A stretch of DNA of 64,000 nt from Podarcis melisellensis (lineage: Eukaryota), in assembly GCA_964234715.1 (NCBI GenBank), contig OZ174282.1; one strand, written 5' to 3'. This document shows positions 12,469-53,700 of this stretch, piece after piece. Both the position numbers and the translations under genes were made by a program. Position 1 is the stretch's first letter. Each line of letters opens with the position of its first letter. The notes beneath the pieces are model-generated. The model was not told where the DNA came from and ran no database searches. It was given only the letters and a program-made list of their open reading frames with translations.

Positions 12469-13257
12469 CTGGGGGGGGGGGGAGACACAAAACCACCACT
12501 TGATATTGATGATATTGATGAACCTAGAGAACTGCAGTGTGATGGCTATTTGAAGTACAGATTTTGTTTAGAAAGAATGGAAACCAGCCCACTTGACTTT
12601 TGAATCTTGAACTGCATCCAGAACAGAATACCATGCTGGTATTGGTGACAGTAGCCCTCCTCTAGAACAGCAGTGGGAACCTATGGCTCTCCAGATGTTG
12701 AACTCCCATCTCTCATCAGCCCCAGCAAGCATGGCCAGTGGTCAGGGATGACAGGGAGTTGTAGCCAAGCAGCTTCTAAAGGGTCACAGGTTCCACATCC
12801 CTGAGCAATACATACGCTTCCAAATTAATCACAAGGAGGGGATCCATACAAAGAAGTAATATGGCACCATAGATATTTAGGGGTAGAGTGGATTCCTAGT
12901 CTTCATTATATTCCTGTTGTACATGTGGCAGTGTTAACAAGTAACAGAAACTCAGGGTGCTGAGAGACAGAAACTGGATGGCAGCCCAAACGTAAGGTTC
13001 TATCCCATCAAGTCCTATGCAGGGAAGACCCATCTGAAATTACTGACTATAACTAACTTGGGTCCCTTAATCTCAGTACGTATACTTTGGGAATGACCAG
13101 CATTGGATATACCCCTTGGTTCCGTTTCCTATTCCCCACTCCTGTCCCAATGCCAGGGATGGAAGTGAGAGCTGCCCACAGTAAACAGTGCCAAAATATG
13201 GGATTTTAGTATATTGCACACAGAACATCAAAGGGCTATCAAATACTTTCTACTTAC

Positions 13258-13664
13258 ATATGTGATCCCTGCCATCCTTTTAGATAGGTGGTAGAAAATG
13301 CCATTCATATAGAAGATGGCCAGGTGCAGCCTACGAAGGAGTGGAATGCCTTGCCTGAGAAAATGGACAACCTGACAGAGCATCTTCCTCTGCTGCTCTG
13401 TTAATTTGCTAAGCCATTTCTGTAACCAACGCCACAAGAAAGTCCTTCCCCACAACCCACGCAAATGTCTGCTTTGCAAAGTCCTCATCTCATCGGGCTC
13501 TGTCTGAAGTTCATGTTCCAGGTGTACTAATCCTTTGTCTAACAAGTAAGGGAAGACAGTGTGCAAAGAAATCAGGACAGCCCGTCGAAGTACTGAAGGA
13601 ACTCTCTTCCGTGATGGGTCTACTTGGATAATATTGACATACTCTTCACCAAGAGTTTGGTAAC
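13258..13664 (-). CDS. PEX10: PEX10 exon 3 (YQTLGEEYVNIIQV...RLHLAIFYMNGIFYHLSKRMAGITY)
   Basis: 407 nt, AG/GT bounded; TLGEEY motif of the Pex2/Pex12 N-terminal domain. Confidence 0.97.
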
Positions 13665-13788
13665 CTAAAGAATATTTTAAAAAACACAATTGGCAATCCA
13701 GAAAATCTGATAAGTTTAATGTTAAGCATAAAATGGCAGCACATTTAGTCAGAGTACCAAGCACAGAACAACTTAGGGGGTGAAATAC

Positions 13789-13869
13789 CTGAAAGGGTTG
13801 TGAGTGTGAAATATGCTATATCAGCAAACAGCTCAATTTCCTTCTGCCACTCCAACCAAATTCTAGCAC
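13789..13869 (-). CDS. PEX10: PEX10 exon 2 ([26 protein letters not shown])
   Basis: 81 nt, phase 1-1, AG/GT bounded. Confidence 0.96.
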
Positions 13870-14850
13870 CTAGAGAGCCAGAGCAAATGACAGTGTTAGA
13901 GAACAAAGTGAACAGAGGTGCCTTGTCAAATAATTTGACTTCAATATGAGTTGAAAAAGAAATTACACCATTTTCATAGGTCAAATAATAAAACATTACA
14001 AAAGTTTAAAAAATTAAGAACTGAGATTTACAAAGTAACCAGTGTCTTTTGTGCAGATACAACTTCTAGAGAGGTAGAACATTGTGGCATAAGCTTTTGT
14101 GGAGTAAACAGATGCATGAAGTATAACCCACAGGCACATACTGAATACCCACACTAGCAATGCAAGAAGCAAAGATAATTTACACTTCAAGCTAGACTGT
14201 ATGCAAGATACGCACTGGAATTCAATGGTTGCAGGATAAGCAAATATGTTTGCAATTTTCAGATCACAGACTATTGATACAGTCCTCTCTCAAGTCTCAA
14301 TCACCTTTATCCATCAATAAAAGAACAGAAGAGCCTGCTGAATCAGGTCAATGGCTCATCTAGTCCAGGATCCCATTCTCATGGTGGCCACCAGATACCT
14401 CAGTGGCAAACCCGCAAGTGGGACCTGGGCACAATTCCTTCCTGTAATTGCCAGCAGCTGGTATTCAGACTGCCTCAGACTGTAGAGGCAGCCATTATGA
14501 CCAGTAGCCTTCATATAGCCTTCTCCTCCATGAATCTGCCTATTCCTTTTTAAAGCCATCCAGGTTGGTAGCAATCACTGCCTCCTGCAGGAGCGAGTTC
14601 GACTGTTACTCGCTAAACTAGGCATTGTGTTACGCAAGCTGAGGCATTCTGCCAATGAATCCTCTGGCACCTTCACCAAAGGTGTCTTCTCCTGCCATTG
14701 GTGAAAGGAGCGTCAGTTCTTACCTGCGGTGATCTCAGCCCAGGAGAGCTATGGGAAGCCACGACTAATAATGCTGGGCTAGATGGGCCAATACCCTGAC
14801 CTGATATAAAGCTGCTTTTTACATTTCCAGGTTTATCCCCCACCCCACCC

Positions 14851-14881
14851 CTCTTCTCTCTCTCTCTCTCTCTCTTTCTCT

Positions 14882-14922
<41 letters not shown>
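14851..14922. repeat. (CT)n(CA)n microsatellite in PEX10 intron 1
   Basis: Directly visible. Confidence 0.95.
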
Positions 14923-14923
<1 letters not shown>

Positions 14924-15219
14924 TGACTCAGATATTGTATCCAGTGTGGCTTGGGGTTCGGACTAGGACGTGGGAGACCAGGGTTCGAATTCCCGCCCTT
15001 AGCCAATGAAGCTCACTGGGCGACCTTGGGGTCGGACACTGCCTCTTAGCCTAATCTTCCTCGCAGGGTTGTTGTGAGGACAAAATGGAGAGGAGAACCA
15101 TGCTCCTTGGTGGAAAAAGTGGGATATAAGGCGCAATGAAAGAAAGAGAAAGAATGAAAAAGATCCGGTATATGGGCTTCTTGTCTTGCAAAGCGGTTCA
15201 GAGGATGCAATTCTGCCCG

Positions 15220-15610
15220 GGGTGATGACGGCTCCTCACCTGCCAGGCCCCCCAAGGCAGCCCCAGCCCCGCTCCTCAGCGCCCCTCGATAGAGCTCGTC
15301 CTTCTGGGCGGACCGAACGAGTCGTGCGGGCCCGGCTTCTACCGCTGCCGGCGACATCGTTGCAAAGGCGAGAAGGGTGCCTGTTCTGCCCGAGCTGCTT
15401 CCGCAAACAGATGCTTCGCGCGGCGCACGCATTTATACGTCATCAAGCCGCTCCACGAACGAGAAAGAGTGTTGGAGTTGCGCATAGAGAGATAGAAAAG
15501 CGTAGAGTGATGCTCACTAGAGGATCTTCCGGGATAAAGGGAACATTCCGCCGTCCTTTCGGAAAACGTGCGCCTTTTAGAGCATATAGCTCAAAAAGAA
15601 AAGCGTTTCA
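15220..15610 (-). promoter_or_regulatory. PEX10 CpG-rich promoter / 5' region
   Basis: High local CpG density around exon 1; ETS-like CTTCCG cores and a TGCGCA motif upstream of the ATG. Confidence 0.7.
15240..15357 (-). CDS. PEX10: PEX10 exon 1 (MSPAAVEAGPARLVRSAQKDELYRGALRSGAGAALGGLA)
   Basis: ATG at 15357, donor GTGAGG, RSAQKDE motif. Total CDS 987 nt = 328 aa plus stop. Confidence 0.95.
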
Positions 15611-15729
15611 GTTGTTTATTTCGTAAAATTTATACAAACCACTTGATTGAGAAAACCAACACCACACCAAAAACACCAGGCGAACAGTATAATGAAACAA
15701 TAAAACAAGGCTTGAATAGCCATTTCTGC

Positions 15730-16465
15730 ATGGATGAAATTGGAAAATATGAGGGGAGGGGGCGTAGATCTCTCTCTCTCTCTCTCTCTTGCTATTATTT
15801 TCGTTAACATCTATGACTATGTGGGGTAGGTTGTTGAGTCAGGCCAATGATACTGATGAGGGGGATTAGTCATTGTCCTGTTGTGCTGTATATGTGATGA
15901 AGGGGATTCACACCAGAGCAAAGGCATGATTGGAAAATATGGGGGGGGGTAGATCTCTCTTTGTTATTATTTTTGTTAACGTCTATGATTGCAAGGATTT
16001 AAACATATGTTTACTGTATTAAGTAGGGGTTCAGAATCTCACCTCCCCCCGTGACTATGGAAATTTAAGAGTGCAAGTGAGGGTTTTACTTTAGGAAAAT
16101 GTAAAATGGGGTTTAATTCGTGAACAATTTGTAAAAAATTGAAAATCAGTAAAAAAAAGATTTGTCAAACGGCTATGTATTGTGAGTACAGTACTTATCT
16201 ACTTTTAAAAATTTTCACCTATGATCTTTTACTTTTTTCTTTGTTCTTTGTTTCCTTTTTTTCTGATATCTTTCATTTCTCTCCTTTATTGTGAATAGCA
16301 TTTTATAGAGGTATAAATAACTGTAAATATGAAAAGAGACAAAATATTCTCTAATTTTTTCTCCTTGGTTATATGTATTTTCTTTTTCTTTTGTATTTTC
16401 TTTTGTTGTAAATATGTATGTTTTCTAATTTGTACTTAATAAAAATATATATTTTTTTAAAAAAA
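15730..16465 (+). mobile_element. Two stacked L1-like 3'UTR fragments
   Basis: T-rich bodies with A tails; AAAAAAAGATTTG(T/G)CAAA repeated at about 16152-16169 and 16459-16476 around the second fragment. Confidence 0.55.
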
Positions 16466-16782
16466 GATTTGGCAAAAATCTAGAACCCTGAAATAACGAT
16501 GAAAATGGTCAACAAGAGAATGAATGAATGAATACAATCAGTGTCCTGGAAAACTCTCACAAAGAGGCAGTGCCCAAAGAGTTGATGTGCGACTGCTGAC
16601 ATGGGGGCCCTTCTGGACCAGGAAGAGGGCATAACTGAGGTGAAATGTGAATGGGGCAGGGCTGAAAAGGGGTGACATGTGATGTAATGGGGCAGGGTGT
16701 ACTCATGCATCTGCTGCTGACAAAAGCAGGGCTGGGAATGGAACCCCAGGTGAAGTGGTCCCTCCCTGTGCACTAGAGACCC

Positions 16783-19700
16783 TTAAGTACATAGTCCATT
16801 GATGGGAGCCAGACAACGGCTGGAGGTGTTGATAGTTGTCAAGGGGCTATTTTGTGGTTTGAGGGAGTTGCCGTCCTCCACAGAGGATGGTTGTTGTTCC
16901 CGATCCTTTGGCATTGACCTTGCTGGTTTGCAGATAATGCAGTTGATCTGCAATGAGGTGAAAGGGGATACTTCAGTAACGTAAAACCCAAGCAGCCCAC
17001 CAGATTTCTTTGTTCAGGACTCACAGCATGACTAAGAACCGGGTGTTCAAAACCACCATCCGGGTGGGTGGTGTCCCCCATTGGGGTTGCCATCTAAATT
17101 GGGGTGTGTGGGTGTCTGTTTCTGGAGGATGTTTTTAAATGGGGAGAGTTTGGGGAAAATACTCCCTTGAGCCACCCACAAAACACCATTACTGGATGGC
17201 CTTAGGTAGAAAACCTCAATAGCCCCTCCACCCTCAGAGATTTAATAAATACATCATCTGCTATCTTTTACAGCAACCAAAATATGTTTTTTTGGGCAGA
17301 GATCTTACTTTGCTTCACAGTCTCTTGAGCGAAGCCAATGATGGTATAAATGTGGGGCCAATAATTTAGCCTGGGGGGACTCTCAGCTGTTAATGGGAAG
17401 ACAGCAGAAACGAAACATGGGGCTCCTTGCTCTACCCATTTCCTCTAGAGTCGGGACCCCTCACCACAATGTAGATAGCTGCAGCTATTTTTGGTACCCC
17501 AGCAAACTCTTCGTTGGTCAAAGGCAGCATTGATGCATGCTACCATAGGAGGGATCCACACCCAGTGTCTAATTCCAAGAGCCCTGAAATGGATCTAGTT
17601 ACGGTAAATAGGCACATTCCCATTTCATGTGCTGAGCTCTGTTTGCCATTCCATCACCTTGTTCTTCCTCTTACCTCAACATGGCAGATAATCCCTTCAT
17701 GAAGGTGTCTGGGCTAAAAAGCTGGTGTACAAAGCACGTCTTTTAAGGTAGCATCTCAGATGTCACTATGAACAAAATATGAAACTAGTAGCATTCACTT
17801 CTCTTAATCTCCCATTGCAGAGGGGAAGGGGCCATGGCTCAGTTGTAGAGCACCTGCCATGTATGTCATGGTCCCAGGTTCAATCCTTGACAGTTCAGCG
17901 TAGGGTTGGGCGAGAGCCCTGCCTGAAACCCTGGAGAGCCCCTGCTAGTTAATGCAGACAACACTGCCTCTGACTTGGTAGGAGGCAACTTTCTGTGTCC
18001 CAAGAATCGGGAAGAAGAAATATTTAACCCTCTCTGCCCCCCACACGCAAAGGTCCCAATGTAAGTAACCCATCCCCAACATTTAGGGGAGAAGGAAGCT
18101 AGAAAGCAGGTTATTCATCCTTATACCTATGGCTGGCAGACTTTTGTCAAGAAGCTGTTTTGCATTTCTTCAGCCAGCAGATGCAGGAGCTTTTGGTGGT
18201 CCGCTGATCTCAAGACCTTCCTCCAGATTTCCTCGTAGTTGCAGTGAATGGAAAAACAAGAGCAGCTGTTGGATCCATGGGTTCAGGGATGGTCAGTTAT
18301 TGCACTGAAAGAGCCATTTTATTCTCTGGGCCAGAAGGGTTTTGCTTCAGCCACCCTTTCACCTGCCTGGCTTCATCATGAACTTTTCCATTTGCTGCCA
18401 AGTTACAGAGAGGTGAATGCGACTGAATACTCTTGACTCTCTGCGCACCTGTGTATTTGCAGCTGGAGAAAATGAGCACCAATTTCATCCCTTGCTGCCT
18501 AGCCAAGAGGAAAGAGGGCTGTCCCTGCCTTCTCAGCTTCTGCTCTGTTGCTTTTTTTTAAAATGAACTTAATAATGGCTAGTGTACTAATGTGGGAAAG
18601 CTCCAAAACCTTTGCCAGTTGCCACGAGGCAGAAAATGATCTGGGATCCAGAGGGAAGCTGAGATCGGGAAACTCCTGACACGGGGGTGGGGTGGGGGAG
18701 AGCCAGTGTGATGTAGTGGTTAAGAGCGGTAGCCTCGTAATCTGGTGAACCAGGTTTGCGTCTCCACTCCTTCACATGCAGCTGCTGGGTGACCTTGGGC
18801 TAGTCACACTTCTTTGAAGTATCTCAGCCCCACTCACCTCACAGAGTGTTTGCTGTGTGGGAGGAAGGGAAAGGAGAATGTTAGCTGCTTTGAGACTCCT
18901 TTGGGTAGTGATAAAGCGGGATATCAGATCCAATCAACTCTTCCTCCTCCTCCTCCTCCTCCTCCTCCTCCTCCTCCTCCTCCTCCTCTTCTTCTTCTTC
19001 TTCCTGGCCTCCCCACACATGGAGAGACTTTCTGAGCAGGCCCCACAGATTCCCAACCCACCACAGCTATTTTCCTCACTCCCAGCACAGGTAAAGGACC
19101 CCTGGATGGTTTAATTCGACTTTGGGGTATGGAGCTCATCTCCGCTTTCAGGCCGAGGGAGCTGGCAATTGCCCGCATACAGATTTCCGGGTCATGTGCC
19201 CAGCATGACTAAACTGCTTGGAAGCAGAAAGGTTTTACTATTCATTGAAAACAGGTGAGGGGGGATCTTTGGCCCTCCAGATATTGCTGAACTACAGCTT
19301 TCACAACCCTAAGCAAGCATGTCCAGGGGCCAGGGATGATGGGAGTTGGAGCTGATCTCCCACACCTGATCTAAAAGAAATCAAGGAGGGAGCCAAGCAG
19401 AACTCTTGGGGAAGGGAGTGCCATAAACAGAGTCTAATTGTATCTACAGACAGATCCACAAGTGGAACTGAAAAAAATCCTATTTCACATTTATTTGGAT
19501 AGTTTGCTTTCCAGTGATATAGCTCTGGTGGAGTTATCACTGGCTGCTTGGCACCCTGAAACCTATTGATATACAGTACTAACTTACCCTTGCAAATATG
19601 TATTGATGAATAGGGGTGGAGTTGGTCCACTGGTTGGATTCAGTATGCACTGAGCCATTATAATAAGCATTCGGCCCCACATAATCCATTTCAGCATCCC

Positions 19701-22541
19701 TGCAATGGAAAGGTTAAGGATTAGATAGGGTCAGGATGCCCTGGGTAGCTACTCCTCACTGGCCTCTACCCTGACAAGGATCTGAATCCTGCAGTCAAGC
19801 CGATGCTGGTAGACTGTCCTCTGGGTGGGCCTGGGCTGGCTGGCTGGCTGTTGATACCCAAAATGCTGATCCCCTTAGCTAGAGCTCCTTGAAAATAGAG
19901 AAATCCCTGAAGGCATCAAAGCTCCCTTCTGCACTGTGCATGTGAAGCATCTATAATCTAGGATTATTTGTCTTGATCAAATAATGATCAATACCTGAGT
20001 CTTGCTCCTTTGGAAATAACTTGCAATGCCACCTGCACACCCCCCCCCATATGAACACACTGTGCTTCTTTTGAAGAAAATTTAGTGTCCCCTTTGGCTG
20101 TACTAATTTGGGAATTTCTCTTTTTAAGTGCTAATGAAAATCCTCCCACATTTTTAGTGTGCATTTCTCCTAATATAGAAATTTTGTGTTCAAGTTTGTC
20201 CAAATGCCATCTTTTTTGAAAGCAGCCTTCTCTGGTGCATTTCTGAATTTTAATTTCACCAGTTTATTCATTTTATATGCATGCTTTTTTTTGCTAATAT
20301 GTGCATTTAGGGGGCAGGGAACCTCTTAGCAAAATGGGGAAAGGTAACTCTCAAAGCAACATTCTGTTTGTGTGTTGATCTGGGAAGTGCATTTGGGGGT
20401 AAGTATACATTAAAATGAAAATAATATGGATTTTTCTGCCCTCCACATCATCTGAGAATGGTTTCTCACACAGTCTTTGCCAGAAAAAGAATCTACTGTC
20501 AATCCCAGCATCCATTCACCCAAACCTCTAATTCACGGTTAGGATCTTTATGACTGGCACCAAGAATCCACCTGCCAGTTTGGCGGCATATTTTCTCCTA
20601 ACTACATGCATAGAGTTCCATTGGGTCTCCTCTCCTTCAGCTGCCACCTGGGAGCAGCCATTCCATTAGACTCATTCAGTGGGAGAGGGGGAAAGCAGGG
20701 CTCCTCCATCAGCTCTGCTGAAAGACCAGCTCCATTAAGCATCTCCTACCCCTAAACTGTGCCAGTAGTGGCTGAAAATATATATACGTATCTTGTTTCC
20801 CCCCTTCCATGTCAAACTATATTACAAAATTAACGTTAATCATGTATAAATATAAATTAACTCTCCCCTGAACAGTACTATAGGATTCACACACAATGTT
20901 TCTTTAAACACAGTATGGTATGCACATAGCATAAAATTTTACCTGTTTAACATAATATCCAACCTACTACAGGGGTGCCAAGTTGAATAAAAAAAAATGG
21001 GGGGGAGGTAAGCCCCGCCCCACACAATAAATCACAAGATGCACACAGCATTTGAATGGCAATGCCCATCAACTTTTTTTGGGGGGGGGAGTGACCCCCA
21101 ATCAAATATTTATTGGGGGGGTAAAGGGACCTTGACCCCTAGGAGCTGGTTCCTATTGTCCACTACTATATATAATGCTAACATCCTAGAGAACCTTCAC
21201 TTTTCTCTGCCAAAAACTTGCCTTTCTTTGACCTTGGATAGTGGTTTGCCAAACTTTGTGATACCAGTATTCTACATCCTAGAGCTGGGACCACTAGAAA
21301 CGTCAACATTCGTTTACGGTCAGGAGTTTTTCAGATGCCATATTGTCAACAAAATCAGCAAAGACCACCACAGTAGATCTCTTCACATCTCTACTCGTTG
21401 CGGATGCAAGAACCTCAAGAACCTCAGCTTAAACAGACGCGCATTCAGTTGCTAGGTAATGGCCATTGGTGATATCGAATACATGGCCACCATGCCAAGG
21501 TTCTAGGAGAGTCAGCATGGCATATTGGTCAGAGTGTTGGACTAGGACCTGGGAGACCTGGGTTCAAATCCCCGGGGCCTCAACCTTGAGCCGGTCATTC
21601 ACTCTCGGCCTAACCTGCCTTGTTGTGAGGATAAAATGGGGAGAAGAAATAGGTATGTCACCTTGAACTCCTTGGAGGAATAATAGGATGTAAATGTCAT
21701 AAGCAGATCAATAAACGTAACAGCCACACAGTACTCCTTCCACAGTAATTTTGTACTCGATGTTTATCTGTTCTTGGTTGTTCAACCAGATTGAGAATAT
21801 CACTTCCCATTTGCCTGAATTGGAACACAGTTGCGAGATTGAAAGCTTCTGTTTTAACTTAAACACTGTTTTGCATGTGAACAGACTACTGCAGCTTCCT
21901 AAGGAAGCAGACTTGTTTCAACAGAACCTACCCTGCTCTCCTGTATCTAGGATTATCTCCTGTTGATCAGTACTCGGGTCTTGCTCCTCAGGAAATAGAT
22001 TTGGCACGGCCACCTGCTCATTTTCCCATAGGAAAACATAGTGTTCCTTTGAGCCGTAGCAGAACAGCAAGGAGCCAATTTAATTCCACGCACTACAAGG
22101 ACGGTATATATTCTTTGAAATGTACAGTTTGATATTTCTGTTCCCTTTTTTAAATCCTGCTTTCCAGACAGAAAAGGTGAGACAAGTCCTGTCCTCAGGT
22201 TTGAAAGCCAAAAGGAAAAGGTCAAGGCACCCAGTTTGAAGGGATTTTTGGGGTAAGAAGTTCAAAAGGCAGAAGGGATGTGGGGGAAGAACAACTTTTA
22301 ACAATGCCCAAAGGAAGGTTTGAGATGTCCATGTCTTGCTGGGGCCAAGCTGATCTCTCGCCCATAGCTGTCTTTAGACAGCGCTGCAGCAACTGACCCA
22401 ACAGCCTTTCATCCCTGGCCAACGGAGGGGGACTGAACATGCTTTGATTCAGCCCTGCAGTCCCAGAGCAAGCGCTGACTGGAGCCCCTTTCTGCCCTGG
22501 CGGGGATGGAGAGAAGCAAGCTCCTTGCAGCAGCTCCTTCC
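16783..22541 (-). pseudogene. Intron-containing pseudogene of an unidentified protein, 3' and central part. Exons: 22126-22541, 21932-22053, 21737-21814, 21318-21427, 20572-20647, 19588-19699, 18363-18462, 18127-18238, 17675-17765, 17465-17583, 17309-17386, 17025-17200, 16783-16947
   Basis: Polypyrimidine-AG and GT boundaries with many short introns (72-124 nt). Exons from 22053 to 16783 splice phase-consistently into about 446 codons ending at TAA 16783-16785. Internal stops occur only at 18170-18172, 17743-17745 and 17094-17096. Three splice sites are mutated, and there is a 1-nt frameshift near 22296-22299. Confidence 0.8.
18696..18924 (+). mobile_element. MIR/CORE-type (Squam3-like) SINE; related copies at about 211-360, 14935-15135, 21508-21700, 63896-64000(-)
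   Basis: tRNA head, GGGTGACCTTGGGC..GTCAC core and CCTCACAG.GT.TTG.TG body; (CCT)n/(CTT)n tail follows. Confidence 0.75.
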
Positions 22542-22576
22542 CTGGCAAAAGGTGAGACCAGATCAATCTCCTAGAC

Positions 22577-22712
22577 CAGGCGTAAGCAAACTTGGTCCTC
22601 CAGATGTTTCAGGACTACAACTCCCATGATCCCTAGCTAACAGGACCAGTGGTCAGGGATGAAGGGAAGTGTAGTCCCACAACATCTGGAGGTCCGTATT
22701 TGCCTATGCCTG
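22577..22712. mobile_element. Palindromic hAT MITE; degraded relatives at about 1110-1200, 1990-2115, 2850-2950, 9215-9330, 10770-10875, 12670-12803, 19255-19360, 47985-48085
   Basis: CAGGC..A.GCAAA TIRs, internal hairpin ACTACAACTCCCATGATCCC...GGGATGAAGGGAAGTGTAGT, 8-bp TSD TCCTAGAC. Confidence 0.88.
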
Positions 22713-22866
22713 TCCTAGACGAGCACAATGTTGTTTTTGTTATTCTTATTCTTATTAATGAATGATCGCTTCCTATGCAGGCTCTCATAGAGGTGGCACA
22801 ATTCAATGAAAAAAATGTTCCGAGAGTCAGGTAAATTTCTGAGGTGCTTCCCATTGGCTCCTTGTT

Positions 22867-22868
<2 letters not shown>

Positions 22869-22911
<43 letters not shown>

Positions 22912-23646
22912 TCTTTATTGTCATTGCCCCCTCTCAGGGACAACGAAATTACTTGGCTGCTCCATCCACCCAGGTAGGGCACTCCACACAAAATCAAAAC
23001 AACTATAAAAACACTAATTAAAACAATACAGTATAATACAGCAAGGAAGATTAGATGACTTTCAAAGTCCAGGCTTCCCATTCAGGGCCGAGATCGCTCT
23101 GGAGAAGCTGTTCTTAAGACGGCTCGTTCTTGTCTTCATCATCCTGTATCTCCGTCCCGACGGCAGGAGCTCGAAGAGACAGTGATCAGGATGCGATGGA
23201 TCTTTTACTATGTCCAGTGCCTTCCTATGGCACCTTGTGGCATAAATCTGCTCTAAGGTGGAGAGTGGGCAGCCAACAATGCTCTCTGCTGCCTTAACAA
23301 CTCTGCACAACCCCATCCTGTCCTGGGTAGTACAGCTTCCGTACCACACACATAAGCCATAAGTGAGCACGCTCTCAATGGCACAGTGATAGAAGGCAAG
23401 CAGCAGTTTCTGCGGAAGATGGTTTTTCCTTAGAATTCTCAAAAAGTACAGTCTCTGATGCGCCTTCTTCACAAGCCCCCTTGTGTTGACACTCCAGGAC
23501 AGATCCTCTTGTAATTCAATGCCCAAAAATCTGAACATTGTTACCCTCTCCACACAGACCCCATCAATCAAAAGTGGCTGGACATTGCTCTTCTGTCTCC
23601 TGAAGTCCACCACAAGCTCCTTTGTCTTCCTTGTATTTATGAGCAA
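22869..23646 (-). mobile_element. 5'-truncated Rex1/Babar non-LTR retrotransposon (RT C-terminal region, 3'UTR and (TAT)n tail)
   Basis: KTKELVVDFRR, FRFLGI, AHQRLYFLRILR, IESVLTY, DPSHP, FELLPSGRRYR motifs; 3' end TGACAATAAAG plus microsatellite; GTTTT on both flanks (22864-22868, 23647-23651). Confidence 0.9.
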
Positions 23647-25026
23647 GTTTTGAAGCTCTTTGGGGGCAGACTCCCACAATACAGGTGTAGAATTAAGGGT
23701 GGTGTGGGTCTTAAGCTCCCCCACCCCCAATTCCCCTGGAGGGACTTAGCTGGCTCCCACAGACAGCAGACAGTGCCAGGGAAATCAACAGGCTCAAGTG
23801 ATGGATCAGTTGTCATAGCAACTGCAGCTGTGGAGCAACAGCCCAGAAGGCCTCAGTTGGGCCTTACAAACTACGAAGAAGACTAAACTAGGGTGTCTAG
23901 AATCTCTCCTATATTAAATATAAATACAATATTCTGTGTATTTTATGGGGACAATAATCTTTTTGTCTTAGTTGGGCAGATTGTGTGTGTGTGTTACAAA
24001 CAAAACAAAAACCAATTATAAACTTACTAGGCAGATCACTACCTCTCAGAAACAGCAGCACTTTCCTACAGTATAGGATAATGTAGACCTACCTCACAGG
24101 ATTATTTTTTGGGTGACTGAGATAATGCTTATGAAGCACTTTGTGCATATACTGTTTTTATTATTTATCTCTGTCAGCCCACATTGCACTTTGTGATGAT
24201 AAAAAGGGGCACCTGTGGAAAAAAGGTGAGACAAAAGGCAGTGGCCAGAGTTTATAATGCTACTGTGTACACACCATACTTTTAAAGTACATTTGAAGCA
24301 CATTCCAGGTACTGTAGTTTCCCGCTCACTGAGTTACAGTTCCCATCAACCCACAACAAATCACAGTGCCCAGAATTCTTTGTGGGGCTGGGATGTGCTT
24401 CAAATGTGTGTTAACGGGATGCTGTAGAAGGTTAGAGGCTAGGAATTTTAACCAAAAAAGGGCACAGAAAAAGGTATATTTTGAGGGTTTTTTAAACCTG
24501 GTTTCCCTCACCACTTTTGTGAATGGGGTGCAGGAAGATAAAGGTACAATCTTGAAGCTTCTTAAGAGCTTGGACATCATGTTTAAGTCCATTTTATACA
24601 CTGATGCCAATCAGGACATTTATCTCCTCGTTCTTTAGGTAATCTTTTTCCAAACCCTGATGACCACTTTGCGGGTGCTTCCAGAGAGCCTGCTTATTGA
24701 GCCGTCATCCTGATTTGTTTGCAAGGCGATTAGACAACACTGGCTATTTAAAACACATTTAACCTGATTTGTTTGTGGGGAGGCTAGATGGAGATGCATC
24801 AGTGCAAACATCCCACACTTTCCCCGTCCCTCTGCATCAGTTCAATCTTTTCAGGAAGCAGGTTAAACTATGGAATTTGCTCCTAGAAAAGGCCGTGATG
24901 GCTACCAACTTGGACGATTATAAAATATGATTTGACATATTCATGGCAGATAAGGCTATCAATGGCTACTAGTCACACAAGGGCTGTACTTTGCTTCCAT
25001 GGTCAGAGGCACTATCTTTCTGAATA

Positions 25027-25248
25027 CAGTGGTACCTCTGGTTACGAACTTAATTTGTTCCGAATGCCTATTCTTAACCTGAAACCATTCTTAACCTGAG
25101 GTACCACTTTAGCTAATGGGGCCTCCTGTGCAATTTCTGTTCTCATCCTGAGGTAAAGTTCTTAACCTGAGGTACTACTTCTGGGTTAGTGGAGTCCGTA
25201 ACCTGAAGTGTTTGTAACCTGAGGTGTTTGTAACCCAAGGTACCACTG
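25027..25248. mobile_element. Tc1/mariner (Tigger/pogo-like) MITE
   Basis: Terminal inverted repeat (TIR) CAGTGGTACCT...AGGTACCACTG flanked by TA on both sides. Confidence 0.88.
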
Positions 25249-26642
25249 TACCACTTGTGGGAATTGCAGGAGGAGTGATTGCTCTTATACTTGGGTCCTG
25301 CTTACAGGCTTCCCAGAGGCGTCTGTGTGGCCTCTGTGTGGACAGACTAACAGGGCCATTGGCTTTATCCAGCAGGCTCATCTTACCAGGTTGCTTTTCT
25401 CTATCATGCCACAAGAATAAAGAGGAAACAGTCTTTAAACTTGGCCCTTATTTTGGATTCTGCAAGCAGCTGGATCCCCCCTGAGAGACCTTACATTCTG
25501 TAGCTCAAGTTAAGTTCTGTATCTGTGGGGAAAAGTAATTTGGTTCTTCTCATTATCATTAAGATTAAATTTTTTTAAGTGTCTTCTCCAAAGAAAAAGA
25601 ACACCACTAGGTGGTAGACTTGCACCATGTAAACCCCTGCGTTTGTGAACCACTTTCTCTGAGAGTAAGACAGAATCCTTTCTATCTTGTAGTAAGCTAT
25701 TCTTTTAAAGTTTGTACTCACTGAGGAGAGCAGATAATTCTAATGAGGACCCCTAGCATTGCATATTATGGATAACATGCACCGTGGGTATCAGCCTTTT
25801 GTGAAAAAGTGTAGCAGGCATATTTGTGTGAGCTTTGCCCAATATTGTCCAATGAACTAATTATCTTTTAGACGATCTCTCACAATAATTAGTTGTCTGT
25901 CATCTTCTCTTCTAACCCCCATAACACTTTGAGTTGCAAAGAAATGTTTATAATCTAGTCCTTTGATGTGAGACTTCCAGTACAAGCCCTAAGCATATTT
26001 ACTCTGAAGTAAATCCCGATAATCTCAATGACTAAGGAAGTTTCCTATAGTTGCAGCCTTAACCAACTGGATTTTCATTCCTCTTCGCCCAAGGTAGTTC
26101 TGATGGTTAGCCTGTGACCCAATGACAAAAAACCTGTGATGTAATTTTATTTTTACAGCTGTCTGGGTTGTTATGCTAATCATCTTGGTAGCTTGTTTAG
26201 CTCATGCAAATAGTGATTATAAACACTGGATTATAAATAGATTTTCGAAAAATATTGTCTGTCTTCTTTTCACAAATTTGACCCTAGCTTACATCTTCTT
26301 AAAGCTAGGTTTTAACTTCAGTTAGTCTACTCTAAATCGGACTAGGATTGGGTACAACCCACAGTCATTTTGTGCTCATGATGGTATAAGGGCACCCCAC
26401 TTTCAATCCTGTTTGCACCTCCTAAATTTTCAGAGCACACATACTGCTTTGTTTACAATCAATGCGTGTCCTATAGCTCCCTGCTGAAATCCTGTAGCTT
26501 TTCATCACACAAACATTGCAAGGTTTTTCTGTCCTGGTATCCTGCAAGAGTGCACCTCCAGATGATGAAAGAGTGCCCCTCCCAATGTAATAACACCGGG
26601 TAAGAATAATGGGGCAAATATTAAAACTGCTAGAGCACTCCT

Positions 26643-26774
26643 GGATGGCTAATAGAGCACGAGACTCTTAATCCCAAGGGTGTGGGTTTGATCCCCACGT
26701 TGGGCAAAGGATTCTTGCAATGCAGGGAGTTGGACTAGGTGATGCTTGTGGTCCCTTCAAATTCTACAGTTCTG
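26643..26774 (+). mobile_element. SINE with tRNA-Lys(CTT)-like head and CR1 3' tail
   Basis: TAGAGCACGAGACTCTTAATCCCAAGGGTGTGGGTTTGATCCCCACGTTGGGC followed directly by the CR1 tail also seen at 59441-59507. Confidence 0.75.
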
Positions 26775-27016
26775 CAGCAAAGCTGAGTAGGGTCTGGCAT
26801 GGTTTCAAAATGGATGGGTGGCTGCATGTTGAGATTCCTGCATTGCAGAGGGTTAGATTAGATGATCCCTGGGGTCCCTTCCAACTTTACAATTCTGTGA
26901 TCTCCGAAAAGTTTGGACCGTCCAGTATAAATCCACCACTGACGCACTTTTATTGTGCCAATAAAACATGTTCCGGAACACACCAATAAAAAAGCCAACA
27001 AAAAAGTCAGGAGGGA

Positions 27017-27018
<2 letters not shown>

Positions 27019-27057
<39 letters not shown>
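27019..27057. repeat. (CA)n microsatellite
   Basis: Directly visible. Confidence 0.95.
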
Positions 27058-27061
<4 letters not shown>

Positions 27062-27360
27062 GGAATATGTTTAAGTATTAATTCTGGAAGGCTGTTGTCT
27101 TTCTGGGCAGATGCATGTTTCATCTGAACTTTGTGTTGTTCTCTTTGCCATACTTTCACTGTACTTTGCTTGCGTTGTATAATAACAATAATTATGATTT
27201 AAACTGTAAGCTGCATATACATTGGAACATAGGAAGCTGCCTTATGTTGAGTCAGACTACGTAGGTCCATCTAGCTCAGTATTGTCTACACAGACTGGCA
27301 GTGGCTCTCCAGTATTTCAGGCAGGAGTATCTCCTTAAACCTACCTGGAGATGCTGGGAA

Positions 27361-27731
27361 CAGGGGTGAACGAAGGTGTCGTGACACCCGGGGTGGGGCG
27401 TCGCTACGTAGGGTGCATGTGAGGTGTCACTATGTACAGCACATGCGCTGTACGTAGCAACGCTGCACATGTGCTGTACATAGCAGTTTGCTGGCGCCAC
27501 CGCTTCAGCACCATACAGATGGTGCCGGGATTGTTGGCGCCGCCGCACATGCACTTTACATAGTGGTTTGCCGCTGGCGCTGGGATCCTCTGCTCACAGC
27601 TGCAGCCACAAACAGAGGATCCTCCACATGCGGTTGTGGTAGGGCGAGCCCCTGTGGGGTGCCTTCTTGTCACCCCCCCAGACATGGCACCCGGGGCGAA
27701 CTCTCCCCCCCCCCCCGTTGCGATGCCACTG
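27361..27731. mobile_element. CpG-rich non-autonomous hAT element inserted in a SINE
   Basis: Exact 8-bp TSD GCTGGGAA (27353-27360, 27732-27739); CAG(G/T)GG termini. Confidence 0.8.
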
Positions 27732-28621
27732 GCTGGGAATTGAGCCTGGGACCTTCGGTTTGCAAGATAGCTCTATCACTGAGCTATGGCTCTTACTCTA
27801 GAGAGCTGAGAAATAAATTCCTCTATAATAAAAAGTAGGACTCTGTGAAGCAGAAGGAACTCCAAACAGGTGTAGCTTGTTAGCCAATAAACACCTGCCT
27901 AATCATAACAGAATTGACAACAGTTGCCTAGAATGGTGTTCAAACCTTGGAGGAAGACTCCCAACCTCTCAGAGGAAAGAACAGCTGCCAGGATTAAGGT
28001 TTTTGCCTTTTGCTGTTCTGGAGCATGGTTATGCTCATCAATTCAAAGCACAGTCCTGTTAAGAATCTTTTAGCTGTCTGACTCTTCACCTCTGAAATGT
28101 TCTTTATCAATGCATACTTATTTAGTTTTTAGTAAGCGGCGATCTCGCCCTTACTTCTGGATTAACAGATATAGGACTGAGGGTGTTAATCAGCTGCTGG
28201 CTCGGTGATTCTCGCAACAGCAAGTGAGTAATACCATGATGGCCCCATTTTACAGTTATCAAATGAACCAGAGAAGCTAAGCTGCTTCTTTCGAGCTGTG
28301 GTGTCAGCTGAGATTGTAGCTTTATGCTCCAAGAAGGATGTTTCCCTTATCCTTTCCCTGCTTTGGGCCTGTGACATGGGAATGCTGATTCCTTTAGGTT
28401 TAAACTTTGCTATTCAGCAAATGGATTAAGGAGAAGATAGCAGCAAGCAATGCACATCCTCTCAAAATCTGTTGAAATCCATGGCCAGTCAATGTAGACA
28501 GTATTGAGTTAAATGGTCTTGACTCATTATAAGGCAACTTCCTTTGTTCCTTTTTAAAAAACCTCTTAATTTAGAATAATGGGGGACTAGAATCTTATTT
28601 TTAGAACATCTCCTCTGCATG

Positions 28622-28917
28622 CAGACCCTCCAAGTGTTCCTATTTTTCCAGATTTACAGAAGCTGTCCCGTTTTCTGTTTTGATCCCGGATTGTCCTGCT
28701 TTTCCTTAGGACGTCCCTATTTTCATCAGAGAAATGTTGGAGGGTTAGGAGTTATGCCACCCATGAGCCAAGGAGGTAAATAACTATACAACCATTAGAA
28801 GACATCTGAAGGCAGCCGTGTATAGGGAAGTTTTGTTGATGTTTAATGTTTTATTATGTTTTAATAAATGTTGGAAGCCACCCAGAATGGCTGAAGCAGC
28901 CCAATCAGATGTGTGGG

Positions 28918-46329: not shown

Positions 46330-47421
46330 TATTTAAATAAATTAATACTATATTGGGGCAGGGGGGATTGTGAGAGATTTAGGTGGCAGTTTACACCTGG
46401 AGTCAACCCTGGGCTAGAACTTTGGAAAGGGAGAGGAGGTTTGCTTCTTGATGAGCAACTGGGAAGACTCTTGCCTGCATACTTTCTCTCCGGTCTCTCC
46501 ACAACTGAAAGGGACTAGAGATTGTAAGAAGAGTTGAGAATTAAAGGAAAGGTCCCTAAGATAAACCGAAATAGGTCACCCCTCAGGAGTCCACCTTTTT
46601 GTTACAACATCAGTTCTATAGCCCTGATTCTTCCGAAGAACTCTGTGACTGTTGAGAGTTCTGTTTAAGAAGCTGCTATCCTTTTCACTGCATAATAAAA
46701 GCTCTCCCACAGAGACATAACAGGCAAAAGAAGTGTAGTGTAGATAATAAAAAGGTAGCCATCATATATATTTTTTTAAAAAGATAAAGAACATATTTAT
46801 GAAATGCCCGAATGAGCAATACTGATGCATTTTTGTTTTGTTCACAGGTGTGCAACTCGACCCAGGGGAAAGGGGAAAAAGAAGAACAATCCTTTGCATT
46901 TAAATACCCAGTGAACACACACAGTACTCAAAGGCCCCTGGTTTGGAAGACAATGACAATGTGACCTTTTGTTACTGCCCATGAGTTTTCACCCTCCTAA
47001 GAGGAAGATCGTGGCAGAGAATAGCACTGACGAAAGACACTGGGCTTGTTGAATCCTGGGCTGCTGATATTTTGAAGGAAGCTTTTATCCAGCTGTTGGG
47101 AGACCGCCTTTCACTTAGCTTCAGGAGAACCAATTGCTCAGTGTGCAGAAAATCCCTGGTTCCCTCTCTGATATCTTCAATTAGAAGTCTTTCTGATACA
47201 GGGTCAGGAAATACCAGAACAGACAATACTGGGCTTAATTGGACCAATGGGCATGAAATAGCTTTCTAAAATCAATCCCAGTGGATTATGTTACTGCTAG
47301 AACTGATTTTCATATACCTGAAGTTTCCTGGTGGTGTCTCCTGACAACTGCATACACTCACATCTTGAACGGGTTGAGAAAGACGAGGTCTTCTGCTTTG
47401 CTTCTGGCAACTCTGGAAGCC

Positions 47422-50776: not shown

Positions 50777-53700
50777 GGTGTTGATGGAGTATTTGAGCAG
50801 TTAAGTCAACTGTAGTGTGACATGTCCAACTTGATCAGTTAGTTTTATCCCCAGGTTTTCTCATTTTGGCTGTGTGTGAATATGTTCCATTCTAAAAGGG
50901 ATGCTTCTAGCACCAACAGTTTGGGTAACAGAGAAGCGGTGGTGTGTTTTGTTTTGGCTTCATTTTTGGAGGCTGGCAAATTTAACTTGCTGCGGCGGGG
51001 AGGTGGAATCCTGGGAAAACACCAACAATAAATAAACTTCAGGATATTTTCTTTCTTTCAAACAAGATTTTTAGTTGCTGAAAGCCTTCAGGTGGTGGCA
51101 TGGGATTTTGCTCCCCCCCCCCGTCAGATCAGCCTGGCCTTGAAAAAGTAAGTCAGTTAGCAAATAATGAAACTTGTTCTCGTTCAGAGATTTATCCATT
51201 AGCTTTCCTTCCTTGCAGAATGTAGCAGGCAGCTGTGGATTCCTGTGGCCAGGAGTATGAGTTGGATTTTCATAGTGCTTTCACCACATCTGCTTAGTTT
51301 GGAATAGGGAACCTTTATTCTCATAAAGATCCACAGCAAAGTCAGTTGAGGGCCAGAGCTAATGGTCTATGGAGCTGGAGCCCAGGTGGGGCAGAATATA
51401 TTCCTCTTTCAGCAAAAGTGGAGATGTTTAGGCCACTTGATATCTGCATTGGGTGTGAATTTATTACACACAGACACACACAATTGGGTTAAATTGTACG
51501 CACACAGAGAGACATATACACATTCTGTTTTTATGAATGCAAATGTTTAAGCTGGGTTTTTTTACACACACAAATTGTTCTATGTATGTTTTTACTACAT
51601 TGCAAATCAATTCTGGATGCTTCGTGGGAAAAGATTCATGAATAAATAACAATAATATGAATTTTTATCTTGTAAGCTGCCTTTGAGTTTGCTTTTTTCA
51701 TGAAGAGGAATGGGGGGTATACATTTCTAACTAACGAAAAATATGGAGCTGTAACTTGAGGAGCAAGGTTGTACCTTGGTTAGTTCAGGCAACCCTGATG
51801 AGGCACATCTCAAAGATGTTTCTCTAATTGGCAGTGATTCATGGCAAATGGCCACTCTCTCTATATGAACAAATTCATAGGCCATTGGCTCCTGAACACC
51901 TAACCCAAGAGATATTGAAGTTCTGCTGAAAAGCCGTTTATATTTTTTTTGCAAAAAGAAGAGGAGGAGGAAATCGGAATTTAGAGTTTGTGATGAGCTC
52001 TGCCTTGCTCCCAAGCAGGAAGACCAATAGACCAGTTTTGTGTGTGTGTGTGTGTGTGTGTCTGAGAGCAAGTGGGTAAGCGAGCCCTATTAACATACTG
52101 CCCCTTTCCTTGCTTTGGACTGCCCTTCTCCATTTCTTTAAACAATGACAATACTTCCCTTTGAAGTGAACGGTCACCATGGAAACAGATTACTAAAGGA
52201 TGCAGCTAAGCATTGCCTTTAAAAAAGAAAGGGGGGGGGGGAGCAAGTAAGCGCAGCCTTTGGTGCTGGGAGCGCAGCATCAGGTTTCTGGCCTTGGGCT
52301 TAATCTCGGCGTTCTGTGGAATGGGAAGAAATTGAATGTGCGTTGCGGAGCCGTTTATGAAAGTTTGCCATGCTTGGAAGGGGAGAGGAAGGGTGGCAAG
52401 CCATTATTTTGTTGCAGAGAACGGCGCTGGGTTGTCAGATGTAATATTGCAACTCATGCTGGTTCAATTCTGGGGTTATCATTTCATGCAAGTTAACTCG
52501 GCGAAAAAGAAAGGACATTTCCCCTCTATTTCAACTCTGGTCTGCTTCTAGGCTTGCCTCAGCCACCCATGCTGGTGTTGTACCTTATTTGTGGAATATG
52601 AGAACCTCTGAGCATAAGCCCTCCAAGTGCCCCTATTTTCCAGGGACAGTCCCGGATTTACAGAAGCCGTTCTGGTTTCTGATTTGATCCTGCTTTTCCT
52701 TAGGACATCCCTGTTTTCGTCGGAGAAATGTTGGAGGGTATGTGAGCATGCGCATAAAGGCACACACAGACACAATCGCATTGCTAGGAATGCAGAACTC
52801 AGAAGGCTCACAGGGCACCTCCAGAGTATTTTTGCAGGAGGGAATCAGGCATATGCCAGAACTTCTAAAGTAGAATGAAAAGTCTTGGTCAGGGTCCAGA
52901 AACGGCTGTTTTTAGAGGGTGCAAGGTTTGTAGGCTTCTTAAGACACAAAGAGGGCAGCTCTGCACATTTTGTATCAGTTTTATACCAGTTGAACTGACA
53001 GAAGCTCCCCCCACCCCAGCACTGGGCATGTTTCCTGGGACTAACAGTCTGGTGAGATCCTAAGCTTCCTTTATGAAACTATAGTTCCCAGGGTTCCCAG
53101 GGAGACAAGTGATGACTCTTCAATCCGTTTTAAGTGTGTGTTGTAGAAATGCCCCATTGCTAATACAACTGCTACTCATGTTCCCTTCTGCAAGCTATTT
53201 TGCCCTCATTATCTTACCCTATCATTGTTGCAGCCATAATTTTAGCAGGGTTTTTGTTTCTGCTCTCTATGCATTGTGGCTGCCATCAACAGCAGTGTAA
53301 CCCACTTTTGCTTTAAATGTTCCATAATGGAAATCGGTCTCTTCCTTTGCTGAATGGCTGTGATCCTACAAGTTCACCCTGCTTATTTATTTTTACAAAA
53401 GCAAACTCGGAGTCTGACAGTAAGTGTGCTAATAATCCCTTTCTAGAAGGAGGATTAGAAGAAGGGTCAGAAAGCCAACAAAACTTTGTATTATTGACAC
53501 GGGAACAAGAGGCACGGAAACAAGATATGTGGCACCGAGTATTGACAAAAACAACTGGGCCAGTTCTTAGGAAGAGCGCCCTGCTTTGCTGATTCAGCCA
53601 GTGTGCTAAATCTGTTTGCTGAGGACTAAACAGAGCCTTCCCTTTCAGAAGAATTTCACCCAATTTCCCCCATTAGCAGAGCCTTTGTAATAATGATCCT

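Follow-up and report, generated by a model that had tools for sequence, protein, structure and literature searches.

A decayed, intron-containing MROH7-like gene copy upstream of PEX10 in the lizard Podarcis melisellensis

What lies directly upstream of PEX10 in the lacertid lizard Podarcis melisellensis? In a stretch of 64,000 nucleotides (nt) from contig OZ174282.1 (assembly GCA_964234715.1; hereafter the window, to whose full length all coordinates refer), a first-pass annotation had joined twelve minus-strand exons into a chain, placed it between PEX10 and PLCH2 and taken it for an unrecognised vertebrate gene. We number these predicted exons 1-12 from 22053 downwards and keep the name family exons for those defined by homology. 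Almost certainly, the region holds a lacertid MROH7-like gene copy, introns included, that is broken and has lost some of its parts; this copy sits near PEX10, likely stems from an old segmental duplication and can no longer encode the family protein. It is an unprocessed (duplicated) pseudogene, homologous to the MROH7-like family and no working member of it. Homology, an exon map, lesions and a whole member elsewhere in the genome were all observed.

The sequence recurs throughout the genome. An open frame at 22083-22373 gave six weak matches elsewhere, four of which also proved homologous to the region at the DNA level, and DNA searches with three sub-regions found further copies on many contigs. 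Eighteen genome regions were fetched from among these matches, and all 18 contain window-like pieces of about 65-85% identity; these include exons as well as introns and flanking sequence, and their order is largely unchanged. A stretch from one copy matched 13 proteins, all lacertid and all carrying PF21047 or PF23227; two are named MROH7. PF21047 (HEAT_Maestro) scored above the cut-off in each of the four family proteins rescanned and in a single exon stretch of copy C11. In four of the 18 regions, coverage of family protein P0125 reaches 692 or more of its 751 residues. The member at C8:6.27-6.30 Mb, once spliced, has 19 exons and 745 codons with no internal stop; its junctions use AG acceptors and GT donors, with one GC donor, and it is 85-90% identical to three lacertid proteins annotated as MROH7 or uncharacterised. 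The last large coding exon of the family occurs at no fewer than seven loci. The family is already annotated in lacertid genomes, and the window copy is a dead representative of this known kind of gene.

Mapped against this 19-exon member, the window copy keeps family exons 1, 5, 8, 11, and 19 and parts of exons 7, 10, and 18; the other 11 (exons 2-4, 6, 9, and 12-17) were not found in it. Exons 1, 5, 8, 10, 11, and 18/19 are collinear with the whole member, sharing exon order, intron positions, and phases, at 55-71% nucleotide identity. Family proteins searched against the window by tblastn matched only four remnant exons (E 2e-10 to 9e-4). When a profile of 12 family proteins (P0120, which has an internal repeat, was left out) was run against 6384 window tiles, the eight best matches fell on exons 5, 8, 10, and 11, and the best match elsewhere had an E-value of 11.

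The lesions can be followed exon by exon along the minus strand. Family exon 1 (21318-21341; ATG, eight codons, GT donor) is identical to the whole member at 16 of 24 nt, and its donor is kept in all 11 aligned copies. Exon 5 (19588-19699; tblastn E 5e-4, 65/119 nt identical) has intact splice sites, the AG and GT being kept in 7/7 copies, and a 7-nt deletion near its 3' end that shifts the frame. The 3' half of exon 7 is a weak remnant with a lost donor at 18395-18477, its limits approximate, which nhmmer aligned to copy C12 with low confidence. Exon 8 (18125-18241; tblastn E 4e-6, 73/117 nt identical) is the best profile match among all tiles (E 1e-4); its acceptor (now TG) and donor (now AT) are lost, and it carries two 1-nt insertions. 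Exon 10 (17675-17784), recognised by DNA alignments and by a tblastn sum E of 2e-10 together with exon 11, has a clear 3' part with an intact donor, a degraded 5' part, and a TAA at 17745. Exon 11 (17465-17583; 84/119 nt identical) retains both splice sites and is matched in two tblastn frames; insertions of 3 nt and 1 nt break its frame after about 22 codons. The tail and donor of exon 18, intron 18, and terminal exon 19, with a few codons followed by the 3' untranslated region (UTR), occupy 16880-17049 (nhmmer E 2e-5 and 4e-5 to two whole members, and alignment); against copy C20:10.42M this piece shows 84% identity and a 1-nt gap. If exon 1 is spliced to exon 5, a stop follows at codon 11. 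Eleven of the 19 exons were not found, exons 5, 8, and 11 are frameshifted, and exon 10 has its TAA, which leaves no intact frame of about 750 codons.

Non-coding parts of the unit are preserved as well. Its 5' flank (21342-24014, minus strand), interrupted by repeats, is 67-93% identical to that of other copies; in several of them the homology extends as far as 23798-24014, and frames within the flank are broken in the copies. A remnant of family intron 1 (20357-21317, minus strand) matches intron 1 of member C11 (nhmmer E 8e-14). The 3' flank (15567-16900, minus strand) shares its order with copy C20:10.42M (nhmmer E 5e-36 and 1e-16) and comes within about 200 nt of the PEX10 start. The introns of the window copy align at 26% difference over 345 sites. 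Because introns and both flanks are kept, to about 24014 and to 15567, the gene was copied as DNA, likely by segmental duplication. Parental introns and flanks together with disabling lesions are what characterises an unprocessed pseudogene.

Several stretches within the unit correspond to no family exon. A minus-strand segment at 17050-17403, where exons 12-17 would be expected, gave no family coding match in sequence searches; of the 20 regions searched, just two decayed copies, C7:83.93M and C16:37.49M, match it, with frame-breaking indels, and a weak alignment to intron 11 extends as far as 17308. A high-copy interspersed repeat (18699-19003, strand not assigned), presumably similar to a short interspersed nuclear element, separates exon 5 from the exon 7 remnant; of the 40 genome candidates scored, 39 were this repeat or the window itself, at 89-93%. 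Inside intron 1, a self-complementary high-copy stretch at about 20614-20766 has more than 30 genome matches on many contigs; it could represent a small inverted-repeat element or additional fragments of the family. The 5' flank includes a 227-codon open frame (23062-23745) that matches PF09004 (E 6e-21), which we take to be akin to the end of a reverse transcriptase gene of a long interspersed nuclear element.

How could such a remnant be read as a nearly open gene? All twelve predicted peptides are present at their positions, and the exons joined by coordinate do give 1338 nt, or 446 codons, with three internal stops (TGA 18172, TAA 17745, TAG 17096) before the terminal TAA at 16785. The region does contain a decayed multi-exon gene that looks unannotated. 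It is no single unrecognised vertebrate gene with a 446-residue product: the window holds one of many lacertid MROH7-like copies, with a whole member in the same genome. The chain had also been described as free of frameshifts; measured against the whole member, the indels in family exons 5, 8, and 11 shift its frame. Two of its junctions are non-canonical, with GA in place of a GT donor after 21737 and AA in place of an AG acceptor before 18238. By hand tally, the chain follows the family frame in 86 of its 437 full codons (93 if all of predicted exon 8 is counted), and the remainder are flank, intron, UTR, or wrong frame.

Family coding starts at the ATG at 21341; therefore, roughly the first 90 codons of the chain are non-coding. 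The 5' flank accounts for predicted exons 1 and 2 and for all of exon 3 except its final 24 nt, which are family exon 1; predicted exon 4 lies in family intron 1. Predicted exon 5 is correct up to the 7-nt deletion, exon 6 begins within the family exon 7 remnant and ends in intron 7, and exon 7 is family exon 8 in a wrong frame. In predicted exons 5 and 6, the frames that appear more protein-like do not belong to the family; by tblastn, only the other frame of exon 7 is a family frame. The last five exons had been thought the most secure. Predicted exon 8 and the first half of exon 9, for about 22 codons, are indeed in frame. The other three are not family coding as framed: exon 10 and most of exon 11 belong to the segment at 17050-17403, and exon 12 is the terminal family exon, mostly UTR, in a wrong frame. 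An optional 38-nt exon (19995-20032, minus strand) turns out to be a second copy of a 5'-flank piece at about 21975-22014, with both aligning to the same place in copies L009 and L010, and corresponds to no family exon. Several junctions were nevertheless chosen correctly, namely donor 21318, both ends of 19588-19699, donor 17675, both ends of 17465-17583, and acceptor 16947.

Comparison with other copies, counted only if they scored at least 62 and covered at least 60% of an exon, shows that the predicted frames mostly break. The predicted frame is net-frameshifted in 2/3 aligned copies for exon 1, 4/5 for exon 2, 8/11 for exon 3, 5/7 for exon 5, 8/8 for exon 7, and 5/6 for exon 9, and in only one of six for exon 8. 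The acceptor of predicted exon 3 is kept in none of nine copies and the donor of exon 2 in none of five; for exons 4, 10, and 12 no copy passed these cut-offs.

Two other identities for the region have to be weighed. A single-copy vertebrate gene encoding some 446 residues, in recent decay here and still whole at the same locus in other vertebrates, would account for a chain with just three internal stops and for the splice sites that are real. Its frames, however, break in most copies, two of its junctions are non-canonical, and the true frames match MROH7-like proteins that have a whole member elsewhere. The read-through of predicted exons 9-11 (17025-17585) matched 0 of 178 candidates; in the same frame it found one match among 1.84 billion proteins, an abalone ankyrin protein, which is spurious and depends on intron-derived letters. 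Against Pfam, neither the predicted exons nor other frames came near the cut-off, the VWA_CoxE score of the predicted peptides reaching only E 0.07, and PDB sequence searches gave no credible match for window peptides and none for P0125. Likenesses to nucleoside hydrolase, VWA, and SAM domains were dropped once MROH was identified. We give this explanation practically no credence. Just as implausible is a fossil intron-bearing DNA transposon (Zisupton/KDZ or HMGXB3-like), suggested by the dispersal of copies with their introns and by a motif likeness. PF18758 was unmatched in the genome, in a search that recovered no control either; PF18717 matched only HMGXB3; and HMGXB3 against the window gave a best E of 1.1, outside the region. 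No KDZ or CxC4 domain and no HMGXB3 homology appeared in the window in the tests made, and the copies encode HEAT-repeat MROH proteins, so for the coding part of the region the transposon is refuted.

The MROH7-like pseudogene is old: its exons are 55-71% identical to the whole member, it reaches 78-84% identity with the nearest fragment, and a tree places it apart from the whole members. It is more diverged from them than they are from each other. The tree was built from exon 8 in those 10 of 23 regions where this exon is usable; the window is 61-67% identical to all ten other rows, and with 115 columns its position is not firmly supported. Contigs from other lineages were also compared. For organism A, a relative, they come from three runs of one study (X1-X3), guessed to be RNA and carrying no strand information; their cover is low at 19868-20995, to which we attach no weight. 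Divergence between organism A and the window is 3.4-5.0% across the region, 4.1% for PEX10 intron 1, and 3.0-3.2% for a PEX10 exon. Single contigs span the site of family exon 9 in organism A (17170-18726, 55 gap letters) and organism C (16518-18725, 28 gap letters). These gaps are too short to hold the 137-nt exon 9, which therefore had already been lost in the common ancestor of organisms A and C. About 27-30 extra letters stand at 17170-17174 in organism A contigs from all three runs. Organism C differs from the window by 1.2-1.8% over the pseudogene (16518-24734), 4.6-4.7% just upstream (25238-28685), and 3.0% in PEX10 (13100-14833); this unevenness possibly reflects shared haplotypes.

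Some observations do weigh against the decayed MROH7-like copy as we describe it. The name MROH7 comes from NCBI labels on only 2 of the 13 matched proteins. No window peptide scores by itself against the MROH Pfam models; most exons that encode HEAT_Maestro are missing from this copy. The homology fades at about 23800-24014 and at 15567 with blurred ends, so the mechanism of copying is one that we infer. The ratio of nonsynonymous to synonymous divergence (dN/dS) between the window and six copies is 0.28-0.47 over at most 139 codons, which suggests selection somewhere on the path, but dS is near saturation. Finally, the X1-X3 contigs, which are about 95% identical, extend over 15379-19612 as well as PEX10 intron 1, so the locus may still be transcribed. 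The dN/dS values, the position outside the whole members in the weakly supported exon-8 tree, and the retention of both gene ends with their flanks would fit a different origin: a once-working, diverged paralogue at this locus rather than a partial duplicate dead on arrival, perhaps intact in more distant lizards. Yet dN is 0.36-0.45 across the copies (0.36 against the whole member), level with and not below the intron distance of 0.33, and the low ratio may reflect either earlier selection or inflated synonymous change. The nearest copies (C20:10.42M, C5:101.04M, C16:37.49M, and C8:66.83M) are all fragments covering 0-41 of 751 residues, and the loss of exon 9 is common to organisms A and C. 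A working past is a tentative option that we hold to be rather unlikely. Considerably more doubtful, and compatible with a pseudogene, is that the dead copy yields a spliced non-coding RNA reaching into the PEX10 promoter and affecting PEX10. Apart from the contig cover, in X1 and X3 the end of one contig coincides exactly with acceptor 16947, and a second contig begins at about 18125, the position of the exon 8 donor, as a splice from exon 8 to exon 19 would require; this fit, noticed after the fact, is a hint, and X2 has neither break. However, the runs are those of another species, contigs cross introns unspliced, no 18125-16947 joint occurs among the 15 of 1066 joints that were listed, a set filled by repeats, and sequence variants could also break contigs. 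Equally improbable is the broader idea that the MROH7-like unit is a lizard "core duplicon" scattering flanks and exons, one dead copy of which was recruited as a spliced non-coding transcript (exon 8 plus the terminal exon) that tunes PEX10. Probable-RNA contigs of organism A also run across 13841-16157, from PEX10 intron 1 to beyond the PEX10 start on its upstream side, and may stem from either read-through or divergent transcription.

The decayed gene is a minus-strand feature, separated by 1.4 kb from the PEX10 start (15357); the first coding exon of PEX10, its downstream neighbour on the same strand, is at 15240-15357 by sequence, and the PEX10 exon at 13261-13662 is 96% identical to that of Zootoca vivipara. 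A phospholipase C gene with a PI-PLC-X domain, presumably PLCH2 given the synteny, is located about 200 kb further on (C8:22.955 Mb). Plus-strand open frames at 46985-47269 and 53317-53592, which have no Pfam match, might be upstream PLCH2 exons. We know of no human MROH gene between PEX10 and PLCH2, and titles and abstract beginnings in the literature pointed to no gene in this interval. Elsewhere, PF18717 led to a gene at L003-L007 (C2:60.93-60.96 Mb), whose seven 3' exons join without internal stop and which we assume to be HMGXB3.

Other copies illustrate the variety of the family. Four near-whole MROH7-like genes at C8:6.15-6.30 Mb, spaced by about 45-50 kb, form a tandem segmental array, of which one was spliced and found open. 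In copy L123-L125 (C8:14.25-14.28 Mb), exons 5, 7, and 8 are repeated internally several times, with one piece inverted, and protein P0120 contains the coding unit twice. Two decayed copies are intronless: L154:4697-5665 (C2:50.907 Mb; 46% to P0125) and L155:4985-5843 (C8:36.676 Mb; 41-47%). They are likely retrocopies of older members, and their existence implies germline transcription of some member.

The closest known system is provided by the lacertid MROH7-like genes themselves, such as XP_060124580.1 from Zootoca vivipara, XP_053257923.1 from Podarcis raffonei, and uncharacterised LOC paralogues. Like them, the window has exons 1, 5, 8, 10, 11, and 19 in order, with shared splice sites, introns, and flanks and 38-67% residue identity in the aligned pieces; unlike them, it is missing exons 2-4, 6, 9, and 12-17, and the exons that remain are damaged by frameshifts, a stop, and lost splice sites. 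The human MROH family comprises MRO and MROH1-9, among them the pseudogenes MROH3P and MROH4P, with HEAT or HEAT-like repeats and largely unknown function (PMC5391009). HEAT-type repeats and the presence of pseudogenes are common to both, whereas the human family has a handful of members and the lacertid expansion is dispersed. In the tree sparrow, MROH is among eight families expanded by segmental duplication, most copies of which are pseudogenes, and active new members of such families are generally testis-biased (10.1101/2023.02.19.529176). Dispersed and mostly dead copies are shared with the lacertid case; however, the sparrow is a bird, and its copies are recent, at >90% identity.

A natural scenario is that the lacertid family would spread by DNA-level duplication of the gene with its flanks and that most copies would then die. 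The window copy would have decayed through deletions, repeat insertions, frameshifts, and loss of splice sites, probably before the split of the three sampled lineages. Whole members would likely encode HEAT-repeat scaffold proteins with germline-biased expression, by analogy with birds. One lesson is a caution: a phase-consistent exon chain with few stops can be drawn from a frameshifted pseudogene and be mostly wrong. Titles and abstract beginnings yielded no description of the lacertid expansion, with limited coverage of subscription journals. By itself, the window copy matters little, being one dead copy of an already annotated family. The wider lacertid MROH7-like family, with its many loci, fragments, and intronless copies, may deserve attention.

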